Shown here: one piece after another, positions 6,384-64,000 of the stretch
Numbering within the stretch: position 1 is the stretch's first letter
Layout of the letters: the number at the start of each line of letters is the position of its first letter
Source: Escherichia coli
GTDB lineage: Bacteria; Pseudomonadota; Gammaproteobacteria; Enterobacterales; Enterobacteriaceae
DNA length: 64,000 nt
Direction: 5' to 3' (one strand)
NCBI RefSeq assembly: GCF_044647545.1
Contig: NZ_CP172818.1
Made by a program: the position numbers and the translations under genes
The notes under the pieces: model-generated
The model's input: only the letters and a program-made list of their open reading frames with translations
Databases searched by the model: none
What the model was told of the DNA's origin: nothing

Positions 6384-6629
6384 GACTATCCCTTATATTT
6401 CATTGCTGCGATTATTTCAATTTCAGTATACTAATGAAATGATGCCTGACTGTTTCTTAGCGCAAAAACTGCCAGATTTGGTAGGACCAAAATTTATCCA
6501 CAAAGTAGTTTTGCATAACAGTTAATTGATAATAAGTAAATGCAACACGAATATATTTTCGCACAGCGTATAGCTTATGTTTATAAAAAAATGGCTGATC
6601 TTATTTCCAGTAAAAGTTATATTTAACTT

Positions 6630-6735
6630 ACTGAGAGCACAAAGTTTCCCGTGCCAACAGGGAGTGTTATAACGGTTTATTAGTCTGGAGACGGCAGACT
6701 ATCCTCTTCCCGGTCCCCTATGCCGGGTTTTTTTT
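6630..6735 (+). ncRNA. gadY: GadY small RNA, antisense to the gadX 3' UTR
   Basis: Plus-strand sequence actgagagcacaaagtttcccgtgccaacagggagtg... ending in hairpin cccggtcccctatgccggg plus T9, in the gadX-gadW intergenic region opposite to gadX. Matches my recollection of GadY; the 5' end is approximate. Confidence 0.7.
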
Positions 6736-6751
6736 ATGTCTGAGTAAAACT

Positions 6752-41826: not shown

Positions 41827-41875
41827 ATAGCCGCCTGAGTTGTAATGACAACGTTTCGCGGCTATTCTTGAGTGG

Positions 41876-41941
41876 TCTAGAGTCAAGATTAGCCCCCGTG
41901 ATGTTGTCAGGTGCATACCTGCAACGTGCGGGGGTTTTCTC
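41876..41941 (+). ncRNA. rdlD: RdlD antisense RNA (type I antitoxin of ldrD); approximate coordinates
   Basis: Plus-strand segment opposite the ldrD leader ending in hairpin cccccg...cgggggttttct; position inferred from the known ldr/rdl arrangement, ends not verified. Confidence 0.5.
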
Positions 41942-49287: not shown

Positions 49288-49860
49288 TATTCTGCTCCAA
49301 TTGTGATGTTTGTTGTTTTAACCCTTTGCAGTGGGTTGTCGCCGCCTGACCTTTTTTGTTTTTTGCCCGGTCGGGTCAACGTTATGAGGTGGGGATGCCG
49401 TACTAATTAACATCAGTGTAACAGTGCGGATCCTCCAGAAAATGCCCCTCGTGACCTACAATCTGTCAACAGAATGTGAAAACGTCAATACAGCCAACCG
49501 GGATTTACACCAACGGTGAGAATCAACAAACAAAGATTAAAAAAACTTCAAACAGCTATTTGCAGCAGAGAAATTTGTGCTACGCCAACACAACCAGAAC
49601 AATCAGCTTAATATTTAGCAACATTTGGTGATTAAGTTTTATGCATTTAATGAAAAAAATCTGAGGTAAAGGTGGATATCTGAGCGATTAATACCATGAA
49701 CGCTAAAACGCACAGGGGAAAATGCCAGCGCCAGCCATAAGTAACGCAAAAAAAGATTTAAGCAAATATAAAAAAAGACAATGGTTTCTGTCACAAATCC
49801 GTTAATGGATAGTGAGATATGGGGCGCAAATTTGGCAGGGAAATGTGTGGTGTGTAGATC

Positions 49861-49937
49861 GGATAAGGCGGTCGCGCCGCATCCGACAATGGGCCGGTAC
49901 ATTTGCCTGATGCGACGCTGACGCGCCTTATCAGGCC
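49861..49937. repeat. REP/BIME cluster upstream of dppA
   Basis: ggataaggcggtcgcgccgcatccgac and gcctgatgcgacgctgacgcgccttatcaggcc are REP-type palindromic units. Confidence 0.7.
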
Positions 49938-50149
49938 TGCATCGAGTCGAACCTCCTTGTCCCCCGATAAGACCGGTATTTCAATCACCACATGAGACTT
50001 CAGACGCATACAAGCTCTGCATCAATTAGCATGCTAATTTCGCCTTTGCAGTGACAGCTGATATACACGTGCTTCTGGCCAGCCCTGCGGCCTTTAACAG
50101 GTCAGACTGGCAGTGTCCGCACCTCAGGTTCTGGATGACTTTCGCTTTT

Positions 50150-50690
50150 TCTCCAGCTCCAGGCCCTTTTTTTCCAGGAGATGCTCCTGCATGGCTTTCA
50201 GATATTCATTTTTGGGCGGAAAATACGCGGGTCTTTTTTTCTCTCTTTCCGGGTTCTGTTTTCCTCGTTTTTATGGGTGTCATCAAAAAGGGGTTTGCTT
50301 TTCTCCTTCCTGCGCCTTAAAAAGGCCTCATCACCAGATTTTTTGGTTCCTTTTTTCCCATTTTTTAACCGGTTTTGGGTGGGGAAGTTTAAACCGGGGG
50401 GCGCCCGGGGGAGAGACACAATAACCGAGAGGATAAAAAAACACGCAAAGTTTTTTTTTTGGAGAAAAGAGCGCTGGTGTGTGTGTACAATGGTGTGAGA
50501 GGGGGGAGGAGAAAAAAAAAAAATATAGTGTGGGAGGGGGGGGTGTGAAAGAGGTAATATTGTTGTGGTAGAGAAGATATGACGACATGAGGGGAGGTGA
50601 TGTTTTATGGGGGGGTGTTTTTTTTAATATATGTGTGTTATATACTGTGCTTTTAGATGTGAGATAATGTTTGATATATGGGCAGTTCAT
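50150..50690. other. Anomalous low-complexity block (homopolymers T9-T10, A12-13, G8; (TG)n; near C-free stretch) between dppA and proK
   Basis: Directly visible composition anomaly: tttttttttt, aaaaaaaaaaaaa, gggggggg and gtgtgtgtgt runs, open in nearly all six frames with no protein-like ORF. Nature unknown; artefact suspected. Confidence 0.6.
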
Positions 50691-50697
50691 GGCGCGT

Positions 50698-50727
50698 CTT
50701 ATCAGGCCTACGTCGAATCGAACCTCC
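50698..50727. repeat. 30-bp REP-like direct repeat, 27/30 identical to 49927-49956, bracketing the anomalous block
   Basis: cttatcaggcctacgtcgaatcgaacctcc versus cttatcaggcctgcatcgagtcgaacctcc at 49927-49956. Confidence 0.6.
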
Positions 50728-50969: not shown

Positions 50970-52661
50970 TTAGTTAGCCGCTGCCTCTTTTGCCTGCGGG
51001 ATGTGGCACCAGTTGTTGTTTTCGTTAATTCCACCATCCGGTGAAGTATAGCCAAGACACCCCATGATGGTGTCGTACAGCTCTACATGACGGCGTGGCA
51101 CTTTCATGTCGGCTTCTTTTTTCAGCTGCGCAAATGCCTGCGCATTGACCGGATTTTCCAGATATTTATCCGACATCCAGACCATCATCGGCACACGGAA
51201 CTGTTCCGGCGGTGCCAGTTCACGCGGCGTGCCGTGCAGGTGCTCGCGTTCATTAATTGACTCACCGTGGTCAGCTGCATAGAACACAATCGCTTTCTTA
51301 TCGCGAACCTGATCAATCACGCTGGAAATAAAGTGATCCACATAGGTCACCGAGTTGTCGTATGAGTTGATCATCTGCGCTTTGGTACAGCCGCTATCAA
51401 CACCAATACATTCCGGCTTCCACTGCGCAAAGCTGCGCGGGTAACGCTGGGTGTAGTTAAAGTGTGAGCCTTTGGTATGCAGAATGATCAGATGCTTACC
51501 ATCCGGGTTGCGCCCCAGCGACTGCTGCATTTCGTCTACCAGCAACATATCATCTACCGGTTTGCCACGGTTACGTGGCTCCGCACCAATCTGCTCACGA
51601 TAAGCAATGTTGTCCGCCATCGTATTGCTGTAGAACCACATTTCGCTTTGCATAGCGTAGAGATCAGAAGTGAATCCTAACTGCTTCAGCACCGCGAAAA
51701 TATTCTGTTCTTTTAATGTGCGCTGCGGATTATCTTCTGCTCCACCCTGACGTACAAACATGCAACGCAGTGAGAGTTTGGTTGCAGTATCACAGGAGTA
51801 ACCACGGAACGCCGCCAGATTTTTCTCCTGAGCCAGTTTCGGTGTGGTATTGCGTTCATAGCCGAAAATGCCCATATGATCCCAGCGCGTGGTTTCACCA
51901 ATAATGAAAACGACATATGTATCATCAACGTTTTGTGGAGCCTGGTACGTAAACTTCTTCGCAGGGTTAAGGAGAGAATTGTTATCGGAAGATTCATCGA
52001 CCCGCGCCCAGGCATAAAGACCTAATGCCGAAAGCCAGTTTGATGGCAGATAAGAGTTCGCGACGACGCCGCCATAACTCGGCAAATCAACACCTGTCGC
52101 CCTCTCCACTTTCTTCTGCTGGATATCCAGCAAACGAATCGGTGCCCAAACCATAATACCTGCCAGTACGACGACCGCCAGGCTGCGAATACGCTGCCCT
52201 GGGGTTCGCAGTTGTCGGAGCAAGGTGTAACGACAGCGGTTATTCCAGATAAGGATAAGAGGCAACGCGCTTACGGCGATTAACCAGAGAATAAAGTTCA
52301 GACCAACAACTTCTTTTGACAGGTCGATATCGGTGGTCATGACGGATGCGATGATGCCATAACCAATGACTACATTAAGGAAGGTCATGTAATAGCTGGC
52401 ACCTGCGGAAAAGAGCACCACCAGCGATGCCAGAATACGCCAGCTGCGGCGGCCAAACAGCGAAAGAAGACGTAGTAAAAAGAAGGTCACCAGTACGGTG
52501 GCAGCCAGTTCAACAACAGCAGAAATGCCTTTCCAGACGGTAAAATCGTGCGCATAGCTGCCGAAACGGCGGTAAAAAACCGCGCCATTCATAAAAAGGC
52601 CAATATAGATTGCAAGCAAAAAGCTCAGCTTCTGCTGTGTAATCGATTTGATGTATCTCAT
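50970..52661 (-). CDS. eptB: Kdo2-lipid A phosphoethanolamine transferase EptB (563 aa)
   Basis: ORF 50970..52694 trimmed to [23 protein letters not shown] at 52659-52661; N-terminal TM segments plus sulfatase-like domain. Confidence 0.92.
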
Positions 52662-52984
52662 GCAAACAAACCCTGGACAAACAGGTGATAACACCCTGCT
52701 TAGCGGCTTTTCAGGCCCGGCAGGGGAAAAGTGCGGAGGTAGTCAGATAAGTAAAATCTACACGCGCGAATAAGTAGACCACAGCAAAGGGAAAAAGTGT
52801 GGGGAAAGAGTGTGCATGAAGCACAAATTTACAAAAATGCAAGTTTGAAAAGAGACTTTAGCGTTACAAAAAGCAGTAAAAAGGGCCAGTTAACTGGCCC
52901 AAATTTTACGCGTCATTGTTTATACATTGCGTTGAAGCGTTTGATTCACACTAAGGCTAAAGCCCAGTAGCTCGCGGCAGATGA

Positions 52985-54193
52985 TTAAAGGGAGCCATGC
53001 GCCTCACGCAACATTTTCTGCTCTGGCTGACGAATCGTCGTAGAGAGCGCCAGTGACAGAATCAGCAGGGCAAAAATGACGTAGAAAGTCACATAGAAGC
53101 CGCCAAACAGTGAGGCGATAATCGACCCACAAATGCTGCCGATACCGAAACCGAGATAAATCACACCGTAGTTTTTCGCCAGGTTATTGAGGCCGAAGAA
53201 CTCACTGACCAGTGACGGGAACACCGTGATAGTGCCGCCAAAGTTAAACGCCACGCAGGCAATCGCTGCAAAGAACGTCACTGCATTCAATGGTGCAAAC
53301 AGCAGGGCCGCCATACCCACCAGCGATATCACCTGACCAATGGTGATAACACGGATACGGGCGATTTTGTCAGACAGAATACCCAGCACCAGACGACCAG
53401 AAAGGTTGGCGATGGAAATAACCGTCACAGCATTGGCTGCGGAAATTGCATCAAGATGCGCCAGACTTTGAGCGATATCTTTCGCTACACCAATCACATA
53501 CAGACCACTCATGCACGCAGTCAGGAACATAACCGCTAACATCCAGTACTGCGGTTTACGCATCGACTCTGCCAGGGTGTAGTCCTTCTCCACCACACCA
53601 TTGCTGGTTTTCACTTCCTGCTTCGGCGCATCTTTCATTAACGTTGCGCCAAAGACAATCATCACCAGTACAATCGCGCCCCAAATAACAAAGGTTTTTT
53701 CCAGACCCACCGTTTCGAGCAGGTGCGTGTCGATAAATTTAAAACCCAGGCTGCCCAGACCATAAGAACCGATAGCAAAAGCAGAGATAAGTCCCTTACG
53801 CTCCGGAAACCACTTCACGCAGTTAGAGAGCGTCAGCAGGTAACCCGCGCCATCCGCCAGACCGACCAGCACACCGGCGCTTAACCACAGCATCATCAGG
53901 TTGTTGGAATGCGCGGTCAGGAAGAAGCCTAATCCCAGCAAAATGCCGGAAGCCATGGTGACGCGTTTAACGCCAAAACGTTCCTGCAATTTGCCCGCAA
54001 CAGAAGATGAAATTGCCAGCCCCAGACTTAACAAGCCGAAAGAGAAAGCAACCTGGCTTACAGGAGCCCCCAGCTTGGCAGAAAGCGCACCGTTAAACAG
54101 ACTCCAGGTATAAACCGACCCCAGAGCAAACTGGGTAATGATAGTACCGATGAGTGTCAGCCAGCGAGTACGCTGATAATTTGAAGGTGTCAT
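52985..54193 (-). CDS. yhjX: MFS transporter YhjX (oxalate/formate antiporter family), 402 aa
   Basis: ORF 52985..54238 trimmed to MTPSNYQRTRWLTLIGTIITQFALGSVYTW at 54191-54193. Confidence 0.9.
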   Translation of the reverse strand: MTPSNYQRTRWLTLIGTIITQFALGSVYTWSLFNGALSAKLGAPVSQVAFSFGLLSLGLAISSSVAGKLQERFGVKRVTMASGILLGLGFFLTAHSNNLMMLWLSAGVLVGLADGAGYLLTLSNCVKWFPERKGLISAFAIGSYGLGSLGFKFIDTHLLETVGLEKTFVIWGAIVLVMIVFGATLMKDAPKQEVKTSNGVVEKDYTLAESMRKPQYWMLAVMFLTACMSGLYVIGVAKDIAQSLAHLDAISAANAVTVISIANLSGRLVLGILSDKIARIRVITIGQVISLVGMAALLFAPLNAVTFFAAIACVAFNFGGTITVFPSLVSEFFGLNNLAKNYGVIYLGFGIGSICGSIIASLFGGFYVTFYVIFALLILSLALSTTIRQPEQKMLREAHGSL

Positions 54194-54421
54194 GGCAGTA
54201 TTCCTGCAGTAATAAAAAGGAAAAATCTCTGCTGACAACCATAACGAAGTGCGCTTTATGCCTGGGGAAAAACGGCATGAAATGCCATCAGAACGGAATG
54301 AAATGCATTAGTTCAGGAATGAATGACTCGACAATTATTCGCCAAATTTATTATTTAGTAAGTTAGTCCCCACTATCGCCACATTAGTTGTTATTTATGG
54401 GTTTCAATTGTATCTATAACG

Positions 54422-55120
54422 TTAAAATCTGGCACTAACCCCCATCGTATACAGATAGTCGCTATTGTTAGTGGTATTTTCTGCCTGAGATAGCGCCGCA
54501 TAGGCAGCAATATTTTGATTGAGCAACATATCAGCGCCTACGGTGACATCCAGCCAGTTGCCGTTCTGGTTTGTCGCCGTCATCCGGCTCAGGCCTGATT
54601 GCGCCTTCCAGATATTCTCGCCAAATTGCTGGTTATAGCTGATTTGCGCCCAGGGTCGGAGATCGCCAAGCCGGGAGTCAACACGCCAGCCTAAAGTACT
54701 CACGCTGGCATGCCATAACGGATCAGTCAGCGTGGTAGTACTGTCGCCAAACTCGTTATACATCGAGGTGGTTGTGCCATCGTAATGTAATGCCGCGACC
54801 GGACCGGTTGTAACCTGTTGATATAAAGGAAAATTCCACCCCATACTCATACTACTGGTGACATCCACAGGGGTTTCTTCCGCCAGATTGACTTCCAGTC
54901 CCAGCGCCCTTTGGCTACTTTGAATACGTTGCGACAAAATATCGTTGTAATCAGGTTGATGATCGCTATCCCAGGTGTAACGCTCTGTGGAATGTCCGGG
55001 TTGCGTATCAACGATATATTCTTGTTGCCAGGCGTAAGCTGTGTTGAGAAAAAAGGCACTGATTACCACGCTCACCAGCAGGCTTAGCTGCCAGCGACCA
55101 CCGCTTTTTTTTATGATCAT
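54422..55120 (-). CDS. yhjY: Autotransporter-beta-domain-like outer-membrane protein YhjY (232 aa)
   Basis: ORF 54422..55126 begins at GTG; trimmed to the ATG at 55118-55120 (MIIKKSGGRWQLSLL). C-terminal ...YTMGVSARF is beta-barrel-like. Confidence 0.8.
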   Translation of the reverse strand: MIIKKSGGRWQLSLLVSVVISAFFLNTAYAWQQEYIVDTQPGHSTERYTWDSDHQPDYNDILSQRIQSSQRALGLEVNLAEETPVDVTSSMSMGWNFPLYQQVTTGPVAALHYDGTTTSMYNEFGDSTTTLTDPLWHASVSTLGWRVDSRLGDLRPWAQISYNQQFGENIWKAQSGLSRMTATNQNGNWLDVTVGADMLLNQNIAAYAALSQAENTTNNSDYLYTMGVSARF

Positions 55121-55277
55121 TAACACGACTCCAGGGAAGAGCCGAATTCGGCAATATTATTGTCATTGTATGAAGGATATCGGGCATAGTAGCCCTGTAT
55201 TAAATATTGACTTTTTCACCGATGCGTCAAGAAAAGCGGCTGAAATTTTTACGATCGGGTACATAGCGAGGGAAAGT

Positions 55278-55841
55278 ATGGAACGTTGCGGCTGGGTGAG
55301 TCAGGACCCGCTTTATATTGCCTACCATGATAATGAATGGGGCGTGCCTGAAACTGACAGTAAAAAACTGTTCGAAATGATCTGCCTTGAAGGGCAGCAG
55401 GCTGGATTATCGTGGATCACCGTCCTCAAAAAACGCGAAAACTATCGCGCCAGCTTTCATCAGTTCGATCCGGTGAAGGTGGCAGCAATGCAGGAAGAGG
55501 ATGTCGAAAGACTGGTACAGGACGCCGGGATTATCCGCCATCGCGGGAAAATTCAGGCAATTATTGGTAATGCGCGGGCGTACCTGCAAATGGAACAGAA
55601 CGGCGAACCGTTTGCCGACTTTGTCTGGTCGTTTGTCAATCATCAACCACAGGTGACACAAGCCACAACGTTGAGCGAAATCCCTACATCTACGCCCGCC
55701 TCCGACGCTCTATCTAAAGCCCTGAAAAAGCGTGGTTTTAAGTTTGTTGGTACCACAATCTGTTACTCCTTTATGCAGGCATGTGGGCTGGTGAATGATC
55801 ATGTGGTTGGCTGCTGTTGCTATCCGGGAAATAAACCATGA
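55278..55841 (+). CDS. tag: 3-methyladenine DNA glycosylase I (187 aa)
   Basis: ORF 55041..55841 trimmed to the ATG at 55278 (MERCGWVSQDPLYIAYHDNEWGVP); Cys-rich C-terminus. Confidence 0.92.
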   Translation: MERCGWVSQDPLYIAYHDNEWGVPETDSKKLFEMICLEGQQAGLSWITVLKKRENYRASFHQFDPVKVAAMQEEDVERLVQDAGIIRHRGKIQAIIGNARAYLQMEQNGEPFADFVWSFVNHQPQVTQATTLSEIPTSTPASDALSKALKKRGFKFVGTTICYSFMQACGLVNDHVVGCCCYPGNKP

Positions 55842-56278
55842 TTCGGGAAGCGCAACGTTCAGAACTCCCCGCGATCCTCGAACTGTGGCTGGAAAGTACA
55901 ACCTGGGGGCATCCCTTTATAAAAGCGAATTACTGGCGTGATTGCATTCCGCTGGTGCGGGATGCCTATCTTGCCAACGCGCAAAACTGGGTCTGGGAAG
56001 AAGACGGTAAGCTTCTCGGTTTTGTCAGCATTATGGAAGGCCGATTTCTGGCTGCAATGTTTGTCGCACCGAAGGCCGTCAGACGCGGTATTGGTAAGGC
56101 GCTAATGCAGTATGTGCAGCAGCGCCATCCCCATCTGATGCTGGAGGTTTATCAAAAAAATCAACCGGCGATAGATTTTTACCAGGCGCAGGGTTTTCAC
56201 ATTGTCGATTGCGCATGGCAGGATGAAACCCAACTACCCACCTGGATTATGAGCTGGCCGGTGGTTCAAACGCTGTAA
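55838..56278 (+). CDS. yiaC: GNAT-family N-acetyltransferase YiaC (146 aa)
   Basis: 146-aa GNAT-like ORF whose ATG overlaps the tag stop (ATGA). Confidence 0.88.
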
Positions 56279-58580
56279 GTGTCAGTTCCGGACCGTTGTA
56301 TTTTTCCAGCCATGCCAGCGCCGTATTACCCGCACAGCCATTCCCCAGCCGCGAGCTGGGGAGATCTTTGGTCAGAACGTTCACCGCGCCGTTTTTACAA
56401 ATACCGTCAGCGGTTAAATCCAGATCCGGCCATGCCCCTTCATGAATGCAAATCACGCCAGGTTTAATTCCCTCGCTAATGACCGCTCCGGCAAGAATTT
56501 GCCCGCGTGCGTTCCACAGCCGAACAGTATCGCCATCTTGTATGCCGCGCGCCTGAGCATCGTCAGGATGAATGGTGACAGGCTCACGGTTTGCCACCGC
56601 GTACAATTCGCGCAGAGAACTGTAATTCAGCTGGCTGTGCAGACGATGTGCCGGATGAGCAGAAAGTACCTGCAACTGTTCCGGTTCGGCATTGCCCTGC
56701 CATTCGTCCGGCTCCAGCCACATTGGATGCCCCGGGCAATCCGGATAAGCGTAATCAGCAATACGCTGCGAGAAGATTTCAATCTTGCCGCTGGCGGTTT
56801 TTAATGGATGCGCCTGCGGATCGCGGCGAAAATCGGCGAAGCGAATAAACCGCTCGCTGTCCGGGTTTTCCGGCATCTCAATTAACTGGTTGGCTTCCCA
56901 TAACTCAGCAAATGGCGGCAATTCAACCTGCTGGCTTGCCCCGCGCTGCCGGGCAACGTTATAAAACGTTTCCAGCCATTGCAGCTCACTTTTTCCTTCC
57001 GTAAACCGCGCATAGCCGCCCTTCTCCCAACGTTCACTCAACTCGGCAAAGACATCAAAATCATTACGCGCTTCATAACGTGGAGGCACCACTTGCTTCA
57101 TCGGCACCAGATGCTGATTACTGTAATCGCCGGTCATGGTGAGATCATTACGCTCAAACGAAGTGGTCGCAGGCAGAACGATATCCGCGTGTTTCGCCGC
57201 AGCCGTCCAGAAGCATTCAGAGATCACCACCAGCTCCGGTTTTTGCCAGGCACGGATCAGGCGATTGGTATCCTGATGATGAGTAAAGTTGGCACCGCCC
57301 GCCCACCAGATAAAACGAATATCCGGGAAATGTCGGTCCATACCGTTATGTTGATATGCGCCACCAGGGTTTTCCAGTGCTTCAACAATGCGGGCGACAG
57401 GGATTTTATCTACCGCATCGGTGCCACCCGGCAAGCTGCCCTGCATGGAAGAGAGCACCGCAGCGCGGCGCGTGGGGTTACCACCATTGGCAAAATGGTA
57501 AGAAAGACCAAAACCGCCGCCGGGTGTGCCGATTTGCCCCAACATTGCCGCCAGCGTGACGAGCATCCAGTGTTTTTGCTCACCAAACTGTTGGCGCTGC
57601 ATTCCCCAGCCTGCCATCAGCATGGTGGTATTTTGGTGGAAAATAGCCGCCAGCTCGCGGATTTTCGCTGCGCCAACACCACAAATCTCTGCCGCCCATT
57701 CGGCGTTTTTCGCTATACCGTCACTCTCGCCCAGCAAATAAGAGGCGAAGACGGCATAACCTGTGGTGCAACGCGCCAGAAACGCTTCGTCGTGCCAACC
57801 ATTTTCCACCAGCGTATGGGCGATCCCCAGCATCAACGCAACATCGGTGCCCATGTGCGGAGCCACCCATTCCATTTTATCGCCAAAGAAATCGACGGTT
57901 TCCGATCGCATTGGATCAATGCAGATCAGCTTTTTCCCGCTGTCACGCAGTGCGGAAAAGTAAGAAAGCCCCTGCTCATCGGATGCATTCCACGCAATTT
58001 TCAGCGTATTGAGTGGGTTAGCACTCCATAGCACCACGACATCGCTATGTTCCAATACCAACGGCCAACTGGTTTGCTGTTGATAAACTTCGCTGCCCCC
58101 CACGACATACGGCATGATCGCCTGTGCTGCACCGGTCGAATAATCCCCCAGATGCCCGGTATAACCGCCTGCAAGCGCCATATAGCGTTGTAATAATGTC
58201 GAGGCCTTATGCAGCACGCCGTTTGAACGCCAGCCGTAGGAACCAGCAAAAATCGATGCCGGACCATAAGCCTCACGAATACGTTTATGTTGATGGTGAA
58301 TAAGCTCCAGCGCCTCATCCCAACTCACGCGAACAAATTCATCCTGCCCACGAATGCCTTGCGGATTTTCCGGTGACGCAAGAAAGCCTTTGCGCACCAT
58401 TGGAAATCGCACCCGCGTATTGCTGTGAACCTGGTCGCGAACCGCGCTCTGCAAGGAGTTTTCCATTCCTGTGGCTAACGCGCCACGCGAGCTAAACACG
58501 GTTTCGCCGTCGGTTTCAACCAGCATAGGCCCCCAGTGGGCGGCAGTCAGAACGGAATATCGTGAGGATGAGTTGGCCAA
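56247..58580 (-). CDS. bisC: Biotin sulfoxide reductase, molybdopterin oxidoreductase (777 aa)
   Basis: 777-aa DMSO-reductase-family ORF with N-terminus [19 protein letters not shown]; its 3' end overlaps the 3' end of yiaC. Confidence 0.93.
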
Positions 58581-58732
58581 ACCGAAGACTCCTGAAAGGT
58601 TAGATGTATTGAGCAGTTAAATATTACTTACAAATTTCCGAGTATTCCCAGGAATAATCTTCATGCTCACGCGGCATAATCTCCCGCCACGGAACCCGTG
58701 GCAAAGAATAAAAAGGTTATTAAGGATTAACA

Positions 58733-59392
58733 ATGAAGAAACGTGTTTATCTTATTGCCGCCGTAGTGAGTGGCGCTCTGGCGGTATCTGGCTGTACAAC
58801 TAACCCTTACACCGGCGAACGCGAAGCAGGTAAATCTGCTATCGGCGCAGGTCTGGGCTCTCTCGTTGGCGCGGGTATTGGTGCGCTCTCTTCTTCGAAG
58901 AAAGATCGCGGTAAAGGCGCGCTCATTGGCGCAGCAGCAGGCGCAGCTCTGGGCGGCGGCGTTGGTTATTACATGGATGTGCAGGAAGCGAAGCTGCGTG
59001 ACAAAATGCGCGGCACTGGTGTTAGCGTAACCCGCAGCGGGGATAACATTATCCTCAATATGCCGAACAATGTGACCTTCGACAGCAGCAGCGCAACCCT
59101 GAAACCGGCGGGCGCTAACACCCTGACCGGCGTGGCAATGGTACTGAAAGAGTATCCGAAAACGGCGGTTAACGTGATTGGTTATACCGACAGCACGGGG
59201 GGTCACGACCTGAACATGCGTCTCTCCCAGCAGCGTGCGGATTCCGTTGCCAGCGCGTTGATCACCCAGGGCGTGGACGCCAGCCGCATCCGTACTCAGG
59301 GCCTTGGCCCGGCTAACCCAATCGCCAGCAACAGCACCGCAGAAGGTAAGGCGCAAAACCGCCGTGTAGAAATTACCTTAAGCCCACTGTAA
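58733..59392 (+). CDS. yiaD: OmpA-domain outer-membrane lipoprotein YiaD (219 aa)
   Basis: Lipobox LAVSGC, Gly-rich segment and a C-terminal OmpA-like peptidoglycan-binding domain (NRRVEI). Confidence 0.92.
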   Translation: MKKRVYLIAAVVSGALAVSGCTTNPYTGEREAGKSAIGAGLGSLVGAGIGALSSSKKDRGKGALIGAAAGAALGGGVGYYMDVQEAKLRDKMRGTGVSVTRSGDNIILNMPNNVTFDSSSATLKPAGANTLTGVAMVLKEYPKTAVNVIGYTDSTGGHDLNMRLSQQRADSVASALITQGVDASRIRTQGLGPANPIASNSTAEGKAQNRRVEITLSPL

Positions 59393-59495
59393 TCCCTTTC
59401 ATGTCAGGTGATGCAGAAATCACCTGGCATTCTTCAGTTTTCCTTCATCATATTTCAGGCTAAGGTGATCGCCTTATCAGTGAATGGAGAGAAGC

Positions 59496-60470
59496 ATGAA
59501 GCCGTCCGTTATCCTCTACAAAGCCTTACCTGATGATTTACTGCAACGCCTGCAAGAACATTTCACCGTTCACCAGGTAGCAAACCTCAGCCCACAAACC
59601 GTCGAACAAAATGCAGCAATTTTTGCCGAAGCTGAAGGCTTGCTGGGTTCAAATGAGAATGTTGATGCCGCATTGCTGGAAAAAATGCCGAAACTGCGTG
59701 CCACATCAACGATCTCCGTCGGCTATGACAATTTTGATGTCGATGCGCTTACCGCCCGAAAAATTCTGCTGATGCACACACCAACCGTATTAACAGAAAC
59801 CGTCGCCGATACGCTGATGGCGCTGGTGTTGTCTACCGCTCGTCGGGTTGTGGAGGTAGCAGAACGGGTAAAAGCAGGCGAATGGACCGCGAGCATAGGC
59901 CCGGACTGGTACGGCACTGACGTTCACCATAAAACACTGGGCATTGTCGGGATGGGACGGATCGGCATGGCGCTGGCACAACGTGCGCACTTTGGCTTCA
60001 ACATGCCCATCCTCTATAACGCGCGTCGCCACCATAAAGAAGCAGAAGAACGCTTCAACGCCCGCTACTGCGATTTGGATACTCTGTTACAAGAGTCAGA
60101 TTTCGTTTGTCTGATCCTGCCGTTAACGGATGAGACGCATCATCTGTTTGGCGCAGAACAATTCGCCAAAATGAAACCCTCCGCCATTTTCATTAATGCC
60201 GGACGTGGCCCGGTGGTTGATGAAAATGCACTGATTGCTGCATTGCAGAAAGGCGAAATTCACGCCGCCGGGCTGGATGTCTTCGAACAAGAGCCACTGT
60301 CCGTAGATTCGCCGTTGCTCTCAATGGCCAACGTCGTCGCAGTACCGCATATTGGATCTGCCACCCATGAGACGCGTTATGGCATGGCCGCCTGTGCCGT
60401 GGATAATTTGATTGATGCGTTACAAGGAAAGGTTGAGAAGAACTGTGTGAATCCGCACGTCGCGGACTAA
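59496..60470 (+). CDS. ghrB: Glyoxylate/hydroxypyruvate reductase B (2-ketoaldonate reductase), 324 aa
   Basis: ORF 59484..60470 trimmed to the ATG at 59496 ([16 protein letters not shown]); D-isomer 2-hydroxyacid dehydrogenase with NAD motif GIVGMGRIG. Confidence 0.92.
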
Positions 60471-60519
60471 GCCGCGACTGCGTGGAGTAAAGCCCGATAA
60501 TCGCTCGGGCTTTTACTCT

Positions 60520-61230
60520 TTATTGGGTTGCAGTAACTGCTGTAGTCCAGGCCTGATTAAACGCCTGATGCTGTGCCGGTAATGGCGCAATCAGTTTGTT
60601 ATATTCACTTGCCTGCTGTGACGTCGGGAACTGGATGCCATTTGCGACAAAGCTCACCTGAGTACCTTGCTGAGCAATGTAGTCTCCAACCATCACCAGT
60701 TGTTGCGTGAAAGTTTGTGCAGCCGGAATCAACGGTTGCAATGCATCAGCTGGCGTCGTTACCACTTTGGTGAATGCCTGATCAAAGACCGGTTTCAGGT
60801 CATCACTCTGTTTTAACGCAGAGTGTGCAGCATCGGCCTGCAACTTCGCATTTTGCAGCTGTTGCGCCAGCACACCCAGCGAACCGTTCATTTCACGCAG
60901 TGGGCCGCTTTGCGTAACGTAATCCTGCGGTACGCGAATTGCGTTAACGCTGTCTACAACCGGGCGCAGACCGGAATCCATCGCCTGATTCACCTGCTGT
61001 GAATAACCATACAGAATCGCGTAATCAGAGACAAAAGGACCAAACTGTTTTTTCTGATCGGCAGTCAGGGTTGGTAGACGTTCACCGCTACGCATCACTG
61101 TATTCTGCAGGAAGTCGATAAACGCTTTACGCTGATCGCCTTCTTTATCAAAACACCCACTCAGGCTAACTACCATTAATAACGCCGCAAGAGGCGCAAA
61201 CCAGCGAGAGCAGGACTTTCCTGTCGCCAT
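60520..61230 (-). CDS. yiaF: Putative lipoprotein YiaF (236 aa)
   Basis: ORF 60520..61350 trimmed to MATGKSCSRWFAPLAALLMVVSLSGC (lipobox) at 61228-61230. Confidence 0.85.
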   Translation of the reverse strand: MATGKSCSRWFAPLAALLMVVSLSGCFDKEGDQRKAFIDFLQNTVMRSGERLPTLTADQKKQFGPFVSDYAILYGYSQQVNQAMDSGLRPVVDSVNAIRVPQDYVTQSGPLREMNGSLGVLAQQLQNAKLQADAAHSALKQSDDLKPVFDQAFTKVVTTPADALQPLIPAAQTFTQQLVMVGDYIAQQGTQVSFVANGIQFPTSQQASEYNKLIAPLPAQHQAFNQAWTTAVTATQ

Positions 61231-61663
61231 TTTCTTACTCCTTTCACCCAAAAAAAGCGCACAACGACACACGCGTGTCTGACGTGACAAGGATAGTCCA
61301 GGACAGGCTTGCAGGATACCCTTTCTACGTAATCTTCCTGGTAAAATCATGGAGAAAATGAAACAAGGTTAATTTGTTGTTTCATTGTTAAAAAATGATA
61401 GTGCCGTTGCTTTTTTTGTAGCCAGAGATTTACGCCTTCTCAGAACGTTAGATTTTCGAAATCTTTACAAACCGGGAGTGGTAAGAGATATATCGGCATT
61501 TATCAGATCGTTAGGTGGCTATAAGTCACGCTAAATGACTGGCTGAATCGAATCATAGCCAGAGCATGCCCTGACTACACCCCGCTGTGTCTGTTTTTCC
61601 CGACTATTCTTAATGAGCTTCGATGCAATTCACGATCCCGCAGTGTGATTTGAGGAGTTTTCA

Positions 61664-61954
61664 ATGGAATATAAAGATCCAATGCATGAGCTGTTGAGCA
61701 GCCTGGAACAGATTGTTTTTAAAGATGAAACGCAGAAAATTACCCTGACGCACAGAACAACGTCCTGTACCGAAATTGAGCAGTTACGAAAAGGGACAGG
61801 GTTAAAAATCGATGATTTCGCCCGGGTTTTGGGCGTATCAGTCGCCATGGTAAAGGAATGGGAATCCAGACGCGTGAAGCCTTCAAGTGCCGAACTAAAA
61901 TTGATGCGTTTGATTCAAGCCAACCCGGCATTAAGTAAGCAGTTGATGGAATAG
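61664..61954 (+). CDS. yiaG: HTH (XRE/Cro-type) transcriptional regulator YiaG (96 aa)
   Basis: 96-aa ORF with an HTH motif around GLKIDDFARVLGVSVAMVKEWESRR. Confidence 0.88.
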   Translation: MEYKDPMHELLSSLEQIVFKDETQKITLTHRTTSCTEIEQLRKGTGLKIDDFARVLGVSVAMVKEWESRRVKPSSAELKLMRLIQANPALSKQLME

Positions 61955-61980
61955 ACTTTTATCCACTTTATTGCTGTTTA

Positions 61981-62006
61981 CGGTCCTGATGACAGGACCG
62001 TTTTCC
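61981..62006 (+). terminator. yiaG rho-independent terminator
   Basis: cggtcctgatgacaggaccg followed by ttttcc. Confidence 0.65.
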
Positions 62007-62038
62007 AACCGATTAATCATAAATATGAAAAATAATTG

Positions 62039-62067
62039 TTGCATCACCCGCCAATGCGTGGCTTAAT
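62039..62067 (+). promoter_or_regulatory. cspA promoter (-35 TTGCAT, 17-bp spacer, -10 CTTAAT) with AT-rich upstream element
   Basis: ttgcat at 62039-62044 and cttaat at 62062-62067, with the AT-rich tract aatcataaatatgaaaaataattg upstream. Confidence 0.7.
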
Positions 62068-62075
62068 GCACATCA

Positions 62076-62234
62076 ACGGTTTGACGTACAGACCATTAAA
62101 GCAGTGTAGTAAGGCAAGTCCCTTCAAGAGTTATCGTTGATACCCCTCGTAGTGCACATTCCTTTAACGCTTCAAAATCTGTAAAGCACGCCATATCGCC
62201 GAAAGGCACACTTAATTATTAAAGGTAATACACT
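62076..62234 (+). promoter_or_regulatory. cspA 159-nt 5' UTR (cold-box and thermosensor leader)
   Basis: Leader beginning acggtttgacgtacagacc..., which matches the cspA mRNA 5' UTR as I recall it; ends at the cspA ATG. Confidence 0.7.
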
Positions 62235-62447
62235 ATGTCTGGTAAAATGACTGGTATCGTAAAATGGTTCAACGCTGACAAAGGCTTCGGCTTCATCACT
62301 CCTGACGATGGCTCTAAAGACGTGTTCGTACACTTCTCTGCTATCCAGAACGATGGTTACAAATCTCTGGACGAAGGTCAGAAAGTGTCCTTCACCATCG
62401 AAAGCGGCGCTAAAGGCCCGGCAGCTGGTAACGTAACCAGCCTGTAA
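62235..62447 (+). CDS. cspA: Major cold-shock protein CspA (70 aa)
   Basis: Exact CspA sequence [70 protein letters not shown]. Confidence 0.97.
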
Positions 62448-62474
62448 TCTCTGCTTAAAAGCACAGAATCTAAG

Positions 62475-62502
62475 ATCCCTGCCAAATGGCGGGGATTTTT
62501 TT
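62475..62502 (+). terminator. cspA rho-independent terminator
   Basis: atccctgcc-aaat-ggcggggat followed by tttttttatttg. Confidence 0.7.
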
Positions 62503-62635
62503 ATTTGTTTATTCAGGAAATAAATAATCGTTCGCGTAATAAAATCTATTATTATTTTTGTGAAGAATAAATTTGGGTGCAATGAGAATGCGCAACGCCG
62601 TAAGAAAGGCGGGAATAACTTCCCGCCGAAGACGC

Positions 62636-62788
62636 TTACTCTTTCAATTTGCAGGCTAAAAACGCCGCCAGCTCATAATTCTCCTGTTTAATATGCAATT
62701 CACACAGTGAATCTCTTATCATCCAGGTGAAAAATAAAAGCGTGAAACAAATCACTATTAAAGAAAGTAATCTATATTTCTGCGGCAT
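62636..62788 (-). CDS. hokA: HokA, Hok/Gef-family type I toxin peptide (50 aa)
   Basis: MPQKYRLLSLIVICFTLLFFTWMIRDSLCELHIKQENYELAAFLACKLKE from the ATG at 62786-62788. The IS150 end lies 32 bp upstream of this start codon. Confidence 0.85.
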   Translation of the reverse strand: MPQKYRLLSLIVICFTLLFFTWMIRDSLCELHIKQENYELAAFLACKLKE

Positions 62789-62867
62789 TCCCAGCCTCCT
62801 GTGTTGATTTCCACCGAGTATGTACTGCACCCATTTTGTTGGACGATGAAATGGAATAGCCCCTGAT

Positions 62868-63389
62868 ATGTCAAAGCCAAAATACCCTTTTGAAAAGCGC
62901 CTTGAAGTCGTGAATCACTACTTCACTACTGATGATGGTTACAGGATCATCTCGGCACGTTTTGGTGTCCCCCGAACCCAGGTCAGGACATGGGTTGCCC
63001 TCTATGAAAAACATGGAGAAAAAGGTTTAATTCCCAAACCTAAAGGTGTTAGTGCTGATCCAGAGTTGCGTATTAAGGTCGTGAAAGCTGTGATCGAGCA
63101 GCACATGTCCCTTAATCAGGCTGCTGCTCACTTTATGCTTGCTGGTAGTGGTTCTGTAGCCAGGTGGCTGAAGGTTTATGAAGAGCGCGGAGAAGCTGGT
63201 TTACGCGCGCTCAAGATTGGCACCAAAAGAAACATTGCAATATCAGTTGATCCAGAAAAAGCGGCATCAGCATTGGAGCTGTCAAAAGACCGACGTATTG
63301 AGGATCTTGAAAGGCAAGTTCGATTTCTTGAAACGCGGCTTATGTATCTAAAAAAGCTGAAAGCCTTAGCTCATCCCACGAAAAAGTGA
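62868..63389 (+). CDS. insJ: IS150 OrfA / InsJ, HTH DNA-binding transposase subunit (173 aa)
   Basis: 173-aa ORF MSKPKYPFEKRLEVVNHYF... with IS3-family OrfA HTH and leucine-zipper region. Confidence 0.92.
   Translation: MSKPKYPFEKRLEVVNHYFTTDDGYRIISARFGVPRTQVRTWVALYEKHGEKGLIPKPKGVSADPELRIKVVKAVIEQHMSLNQAAAHFMLAGSGSVARWLKVYEERGEAGLRALKIGTKRNIAISVDPEKAASALELSKDRRIEDLERQVRFLETRLMYLKKLKALAHPTKK
63350..63356 (+). other. Programmed -1 ribosomal frameshift slippery heptamer A_AAA_AAG of IS150
   Basis: ctaAAAAAAGctg near the end of orfA; the -1 frame is open from upstream of this site and continues into the DDE transposase. Confidence 0.75.
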
Positions 63390-64000
63390 AAGTACTCAAC
63401 GAGCTAAGGCAGTTTTATCCTCTTGATGAGCTTCTCAGGGCTGCGGAGATACCGCGCAGTACGTTTTATTACCATCTAAAGGCTCTCAGCAAGCCTGACA
63501 AGTATGCGGACGTTAAAAAGCGTATTGGTGAGATTTATCACGAGAATAGAGGCCGATACGGATACCGTAGGGTAACGCTGTCTCTTCATCGAGAAGGGAA
63601 ACAGATTAACCATAAAGCTGTTCAGCGCCTGATGGGAACCCTCTCACTTAAAGCAGCGATTAAGGTCAAGCGATACCGCTCTTACAGAGGAGAGGTAGGG
63701 CAAACCGCCCCTAATGTTCTCCAAAGAGATTTCAAGGCTACGCGGCCAAACGAGAAGTGGGTTACCGATGTTACTGAATTTGCAGTCAATGGGCGCAAGC
63801 TGTATTTGTCTCCAGTAATAGATCTCTTCAACAACGAAGTTATTTCTTACAGCCTTTCGGAAAGACCAGTGATGAACATGGTTGAGAATATGCTCGATCA
63901 GGCATTCAAAAAGCTTAATCCTCACGAGCATCCTGTTCTGCACTCTGACCAGGGATGGCAGTATCGTATGAGAAAATATCAAAATATTCTTAAAGAACAT
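63386..64000 (+). CDS. insK: IS150 OrfB / InsK, DDE transposase catalytic domain (partial, continues beyond window)
   Basis: Manual translation in the -1 frame gives [33 protein letters not shown]...KWVTDVTEF...HSDQGWQY with no stop before the window end; absent from the ORF track because the stop lies outside. Confidence 0.85.

Follow-up and report, generated by a model that had tools for sequence, protein, structure and literature searches.

The orfA-orfB frameshift cassette of an IS150 copy at the hokA locus of Escherichia coli

The stretch of DNA analysed here, 64,000 nucleotides of Escherichia coli contig NZ_CP172818.1 (assembly GCF_044647545.1) and referred to below as the window, ends inside a copy of the insertion sequence IS150, a member of the IS150 group of the IS3 family. 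The span in which orfA gives way to orfB is almost certainly the programmed -1 ribosomal frameshift cassette of this element, and the sequence components of the cassette that lie inside the window are all intact. The frameshift signal of IS150 is already known and the copy is an ordinary one. The features are listed in Table 1.

Table 1 Features of the IS150 copy and of its insertion site, in window coordinates.
Feature	Position	Strand	Basis
IS150, positions 1-1180 of 1443, cut by window end	62821-64000	+	Gap-free alignment with K-12 IS150
Left inverted repeat IRL TGTACTGCACCCATTTTGTTGGAC	62821-62844	+	TG start; 18/24 match to reverse complement of the right repeat in complete copies
orfA (insJ / InsA), 173 aa, HTH DNA-binding protein	62868-63389	+	ORF list, translation, Pfam HTH_28
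0/-1 frame overlap (frameshift window), 58 nt	63332-63389	+	Between TGA 63329-63331 and the orfA stop 63387-63389
Slippery heptamer A_AAA_AAG	63350-63356	+	Sequence, phase, conservation in relatives
Spacer CTGAAA, 6 nt, heptamer to stem	63357-63362	+	Equal length in 11/11 aligned elements
Predicted stem, 5' arm GCCTTAGCTC	63363-63372	+	MFE fold, RNAalifold, pairing in alignment
Predicted stem, 3' arm GAGCTAAGGC	63401-63410	+	MFE fold, RNAalifold; overlies conserved ELRQ codons of OrfB
orfB (insK / InsB), residues 1-205 of 283, truncated by the window	63386-64000	+	K-12 insK annotation maps here; Pfam
hokA toxin gene (62636-62788) and mokA remnant	62636-62820	-	ORF; K-12/RefSeq annotations of the identical junction

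The IS150 copy and its reading frames

Comparison with the IS150 of K-12 MG1655 (NC_000913.3, 3720633-3722075, insJ/insK) disclosed nine substitutions over 1180 bp and no gaps, and none of the substitutions falls in the cassette at 63297-63471. The original prediction, an IS150 copy with an intact orfA-orfB frameshift window, is thus upheld and, as no substitution separates the two sequences there, the cassette in the window is that of an element with demonstrated frameshifting. IS150 copies of 100% identity are annotated in RefSeq as 'IS3-like element IS150 family transposase, programmed frameshift'. The left repeat at 62821 (TGTACTGCACCC...) is likewise identical to that of K-12, with the TG of the 5'-TG...CA-3' termini of the IS150 group, and the right repeat is positioned beyond the window.

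A pair of ORFs, a motif of the HTH type, the D(57-60)D(35)E signature and an AnG frameshift window are the hallmarks listed for the IS150 group (PMC5771124). orfA starts with ATG at 62868 and its product is 100% identical to K-12 InsJ; the expected HTH was found in it by Pfam (HTH_28, 81.5 bits, E = 4e-23, together with HTH_29, HTH_32 and HTH_23). The annotated start of orfB is a GTG at 63386 that overlaps the orfA TGA. The -1 frame encodes HTH_21 (E = 3e-16) and rve, the integrase core with the DDE residues (E = 2e-22), so that its earlier assignment to a DDE transposase stands, with the refinement that only D128 (63767-63769) and D188 (63947-63949) are within the window. These two are 60 apart in numbering, which fits D(57-60)D, and E224 (~64055) and K231, the K/R that follows the E in the signature, are placed beyond the window end, at ~64055-64078; both are present in the SMS-3-5 copy of identical sequence (L003). 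The 205 visible residues of OrfB differ from K-12 by S48G and R197K.

Direct inspection of the sequence located AAAAAAG at 63350-63356 on the + strand, near the end of insJ as claimed and 33 nt before the orfA stop. It is read in orfA as CTA AAA AAG (63348-63356), that is as A_AAA_AAG in X_XXY_YYZ phase, or CUA_AAA_AAG in the mRNA; tandem slippage of tRNAs requires this phase. The last stop of the -1 frame, TGA at 63329-63331, precedes the heptamer, and the frame is then open for 223 codons, from 63332 to the window end at 64000, again in agreement with the claim. Two features of the IS150 group were accordingly found, namely two ORFs in succession, of which orfB overlaps the end of orfA in the -1 phase, and an in-phase AnG slippery motif inside the 0/-1 overlap. 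The bare heptamer is not rare, AAAAAAG occurring 25 times on the two strands of the window vs 15.3 +/- 3.8 expected; it is the context that sets the copy at 63350-63356 beyond chance, since it lies in phase where an HTH ORF and an rve ORF overlap, and since 6 nt downstream of it begins a stem, predicted independently by RNAalifold, which is fully paired in 11/11 related elements with compensatory changes.

A conceptual OrfAB protein, with the slip placed at the heptamer, gave one unbroken match to NCBIfam NF033516 (transpos_IS3), over residues 66-378, with a score of 296 bits against a cut-off of 160, and the shift junction at about residue 162 lies inside this match. As the match is continuous across the junction, a -1 shift at the heptamer restores the reading frame of the family, and the proposal that an OrfAB fusion is possible is supported. 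In annotation, orfA and orfB should here be treated as a single transposase gene that contains a programmed frameshift, and not as a pseudogene.

The predicted stimulatory stem and the frameshift mechanism

The minimum free energy (MFE) of 63340-63430 was -21.6 kcal/mol (z = -2.75 vs shuffled sequence), and the predicted fold contains a stem of 10 bp, 6 nt after the heptamer, formed by the two arms given in Table 1. The identical helix was returned independently by RNAalifold from an alignment of 11 IS150-group sequences, in which the window copy stands beside ISKpn8 (94% OrfB identity), four plasmid elements (~65-69% nucleotide identity) and five elements from viral contigs (68% OrfB identity for L018, 56-58% for the other four). 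Standard pairs occupy 110/110 stem cells (10 pairs in 11 sequences), with compensatory CG<->UA changes at two pairs and wobble-compatible single changes at two more, while in a control the sliding of the 3' partner by 1-3 columns gave pairing of 22-54%, vs 100% in register. ELRQ is invariant in the OrfB alignment and 6/10 stem pairs show no variation at all; as these invariant pairs go together with a 3' arm that overlies the ELRQ codons, protein constraint probably contributes to the conservation of the stem. The compensatory changes fall at synonymous or tolerated positions.

The downstream structure that is a feature of the IS150 group is therefore represented in this copy by a predicted stimulatory stem. 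The span originally proposed for the signal, 63350-63389, was right as regards the heptamer and the frame overlap and too short at its end, the predicted signal reaching 63410, 21 nt further, with the 3' arm; its annotation should extend accordingly to 63410, not 63389.

The A_AAA_AAG heptamer is kept in ISKpn8 and in the elements at ~65-69% nucleotide identity. In L019-L022 (~1144-1150) the motif is A_AAA_AAT or A_AAA_AAC and the loop is longer, with a hairpin of its own, the spacer and the stem being kept. L006 (~1095-1105) has the tetramer A_AAG only (CTT CAA AAG), also with the 6-nt spacer and the stem.

No Rfam frameshift-element family was found at the site, either in E-value mode over 61500-64000 or in gathering mode over the whole window. 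The Rfam matches above gathering score were the cspA thermoregulator directly upstream of hokA, rdlD antitoxin RNA, GadY, ES205 and naRNA4, a REP-derived RNA (62075-62502, 41875-41940, 6627-6740, 776-847 and 49857-49937, respectively), and tRNA-Pro was also among the matches of the scan. Taken together, the matches above gathering score indicate the region of the E. coli chromosome from gadX/gadW to cspA.

From established knowledge of IS150, slippage in this copy would be highly efficient and would proceed as follows. Ribosomes translating orfA would arrive at CUA_AAA_AAG and be paused at the heptamer by the predicted 10-bp stem 6 nt downstream, and a fraction of them would move back by one base at the two lysine codons into the -1 frame. 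The product of slippage would be the OrfAB fusion, in which the HTH region is joined to the DDE/rve domain to give the active transposase; the non-slipping ribosomes would stop at the orfA TGA and yield OrfA, and OrfB alone could come from the GTG at 63386. Vogele et al. reportedly showed in 1991 that IS150 makes InsA, InsB and a transframe InsAB, the last by a highly efficient -1 shift of the ribosome at A AAA AAG, and a stem-loop further downstream is said in the same work to stimulate the shift. In a later paper IS150 is treated as proven to use -1 frameshifting with stimulation by a stem-loop (PMC4066793). Members of the IS3 family yield OrfA, OrfB and OrfAB through frameshifting, for which Vogele 1991 is cited, and OrfAB is required for transposition (PMC11708052); in evolution lines of E. 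coli B, IS150 showed high activity and accounted for 68/83 IS events (PMC11708052).

It could be argued that the fusion arises from slippage of RNA polymerase on the A6 run (transcriptional realignment), with no slip of the ribosome. The motif in the window is indeed a homopolymeric A run, and transcriptional slippage on A/T runs is a device of some IS3-family and other IS elements (PMC6211511). However, the X_XXY_YYZ phase is conserved, and a conserved, covarying stem at a distance of 6 nt is the signature of ribosomal -1 frameshifting; six As are short for efficient polymerase slippage, and the relative L006, with its tetramer and equal spacer and stem, fits re-pairing of tRNAs and not slippage on a homopolymer. 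Given the short run, the conservation of phase, spacer and stem, and the bare tetramer of one relative, transcriptional slippage is very unlikely, and IS150 is cited as proven to be ribosomal (PMC4066793). The A_AAA_AAG motif of IS150 and the stem-loop after it are a textbook example of -1 frameshift signals in bacteria, and the signal in this further copy has little import beyond correct annotation.

Completeness of the copy, its insertion site and its background

That completeness could not be decided from the window had been recognized in the original prediction, and this proved correct: the window ends at IS position 1180, and beyond 64000 lie the final 79 codons of orfB, among them the stop and E224, together with the right inverted repeat and any duplication of the target. 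The window does hold the left part of the element only, as stated, and the missing part, put at about 300 bp, is in fact of 263 bp. By extrapolation, a full copy would end orfB at ~64237 and have its right end at 64263; a length of ~1.4 kb and a target-site duplication of 3 bp are features of the IS150 group. In such a copy orfB would be expected to continue '...NAVVECFFGTLK...TYMPRV*' and 'VVECFFGTLK...PRV*', and the right end to read '...GGGGTCAGTACA' and '...CCAACTTTTTGGGGTCAGTACA'.

By analogy, the odds favour an intact copy. Eight full-length copies from other loci were examined, and each of them shares the heptamer and the stem, has an open orfB and is intact through the right repeat; the SMS-3-5 copy of identical sequence is 1443 bp long with a GAA duplication. 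The K-12-type copies at hokA (L001, L002, L015) are each 1443 bp long with a complete transposase annotation. These observations weigh against an improbable alternative, according to which the cassette is intact but the copy is truncated, interrupted or mutated in its last 263 bp, and hence immobile and without functional OrfAB. The alternative draws on the position of E224, of the orfB stop and of the right inverted repeat, all past the window end at IS position 1180, on the splitting of one of the ten places matched by OrfA (L024) by an IS21-like insertion, on the presence of a garbled IS-related stretch at 49921-50700 in the source assembly, and on the deletions that flank the K-12-type hokA copies (43 bp, and a further 58 bp in E7-1N7); these deletions, however, end at the IS termini. 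An intact copy is therefore the favoured reading and, with the end of orfB outside the window, the capability of this copy to make a functional transposase is probable by analogy and not proven. The hok-site copies with OrfB calls of 121 aa were at one point suspected to be broken; this was rejected, as their -1 frames are fully open and the calls are a gene-caller artefact.

At the insertion site, IS150 separates hokA/mokA from the upstream leader and from sokA; the sokA of MG1655 is disrupted by IS150 (PMC11551753). The left junction, GAGTA/TGTACTG at 62821, is at the same nucleotide as in K-12 MG1655, and this K-12-type junction occurs in ~1640-1653 of 5426 complete E. coli genomes (~30%). 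hokA::IS150 is a long-known feature of E. coli K-12.

Comparison of the spans L002 3077-3140, L001 4565-4620 and L004 27487-27529 disclosed that K-12-type hokA::IS150 has no target duplication and that 43 bp of the hokA leader are missing; in the E7-1N7 subtype 58 bp more are missing on the right. The right endpoint of the K-12 deletion lies <=2 nt from the insertion site of ST648-type genomes, and the pattern fits adjacent deletions by IS150 that end at a preferred target. Adjacent deletions of IS150 without duplications have been reported in evolution lines (PMC11708052). The right flank would tell the types apart, 'AACTTTGATT' being expected for the 43-bp deletion of the K-12 type and 'GACAAACAGTC' for the larger deletion of the E7-1N7 type, while 'GTAAGAGGCTAACC...' is the flank expected of a fresh insertion with duplication, possibly followed by an inverted IS150.

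Copies of IS150 were observed at the leaders of three different hok loci, hokA, hokB and hokE. A survey of the flanks of L003, L024-L028 and L031-L033, with 62816-62820 of the window, recorded NGRGGC after the duplication of 3-4 bp, on the side of the right repeat, at 7/8 distinct IS150 sites, the instances being TGAGGC, CGAGGC, TGGGGC, TGGCGC and AGAGGC. This suggests that IS150 may have a sequence-specific target preference. Recurrent insertion of IS150 at fixed positions by hok/sok loci has been documented in experimental evolution (PMC5419217) and, taken with the copies at the three hok leaders and with NGRGGC at 7/8 sites, makes the hok leader a plausible hot spot for IS150 insertion. The second-locus site of SMS-3-5 was considered as the homologous position of another hok locus and rejected, because its hok-leader-like segment is ~150 bp from the insertion point.

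The chromosome to the left of the element is of the ST648 type. Over 51000-62820 the window has one mismatch in 11,821 bp with ST648 and its relatives, at 62814, and a look-up by the BisC allele of the window returned ST648-type arrangements only. In ST648-type genomes (L004, L010-L014) the IS150 of the hokA locus is inverted, lies 43 bp further right and has a short target duplication, and the window element differs from it at 14 positions, whereas it is 100% identical over 1180 bp to the copy at a second locus in SMS-3-5 (L003, 1501-2680). Ten other places were returned by a look-up with OrfA, none of them like the window. The exact junction pattern, with A or C allowed at 62814, is absent from the GTDB representative genomes. 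A search of complete genomes for IS150 in forward orientation, with the GTA duplication and the 43-bp segment still in place, gave matches of the 43-bp-deleted K-12 type only, and a double, inverted IS150 was not found at the hokA locus.

Two further peculiarities of the window were noted. Position 62814, 7 nt before the left end of IS150, is C and not A; this C is found in 0/5426 complete E. coli genomes and must be put down to a mutation private to the source or to an error in sequencing. The stretch 49921-50700, between dppA and tRNA-Pro(CGG), is ORF-less and rich in homopolymers. Aligned with the ST648 region that carries an intact IS3-family transposase, it shows 84% identity, 16 gaps and the absence of ~770 bp of that element, vs flanks at 99.9%, and it has the look of an IS copy that is truncated, of low sequence quality or wrongly assembled. 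A look-up by ORF from this garbled region gave no match.

Three readings of the mismatch between element and background are possible: IS150 may have inserted independently at a hot spot, the arrangement may have been imported by recombination from a donor not yet sampled, or there may be an assembly problem. Under the last, the junction and the IS at the window end would be the consensus of a collapsed repeat or a mis-join in a poor assembly, and the copy a composite. Several observations lend themselves to this: the sequence up to 62820 is one base from genomes in which IS150 lies 43 bp further on in inverted orientation, the sequence of the element is that of a copy which such genomes have at another locus and of no copy at the hokA site, the C at 62814 is 7 nt from the junction, and 49921-50700 resembles low-quality sequence. 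A mis-join, however, would not be expected to rebuild to the base a junction common to ~1650 complete genomes, and recurrent insertion of IS150 at fixed positions of hok/sok leaders is documented (PMC5419217), so that an assembly problem, while deserving some weight, is considered doubtful. Even then the frameshift cassette would be genuine IS150 sequence, and the mismatch leaves the verdict on the frameshift signal unchanged.

It is proposed, only tentatively and with a similar measure of doubt, that the second-locus IS150 variant was recently and independently inserted at the exact nucleotide of the ancient K-12-type insertion, in a lineage with relatives that already have IS150 in inverted orientation at a distance of 43 bp; the GTA duplication, the 43-bp segment and the inverted IS150 would then follow past the window. 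If this were true, the locus would be a large near-palindrome and the hok leader a base-precise target of IS150, and the structure could be the intermediate behind the K-12-type copies, which have no duplication and lack the 43 bp. The background-mismatched variant and orientation of IS150, together with NGRGGC at hok loci, offer a modest lead on target choice and on the IS-driven decay of chromosomal hok/sok.

Comparison with known systems

The IS150 of K-12 (insJ/insK, b3557/b3558, hokA-sokA) resembles the window copy in its left junction, OrfA, heptamer, spacer, stem and orientation relative to cspA-hokA, and differs from it in the two OrfB residues given above, in the flanking C at 62814 and in that the window belongs to an ST648-like chromosome. 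The second-locus copy of SMS-3-5 (NC_010498.1, 1087815-1089257), from phylogroup-F-like strains, is the element whose sequence the window shares over 1180 bp; it is complete at 1443 bp, has a 3-bp GAA target duplication and is annotated with the programmed frameshift, but it occupies another chromosomal site.

ISKpn8 and unnamed IS150-group elements from Klebsiella/Enterobacter plasmids and viral contigs share the same orfA/orfB layout, with A_AAA_AAN or A_AAG, a 6-nt spacer and a homologous stem that starts with GCCTT and is closed by AAGGC or GAGGC. These relatives differ from the window copy in an OrfB identity of 56-94%, and the distant ones in a longer branched loop and in the motifs A_AAA_AAT/A_AAA_AAC.

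Among other members of the IS3 family, IS911 has in addition a Shine-Dalgarno-like stimulator upstream, and in IS3 a pseudoknot is used. The signals of IS911 and IS3 are otherwise like that in the window, with a heptamer of the A_AAA_AAG type, a downstream RNA structure and the products OrfA, OrfB and OrfAB (PMC4066793, and general knowledge).
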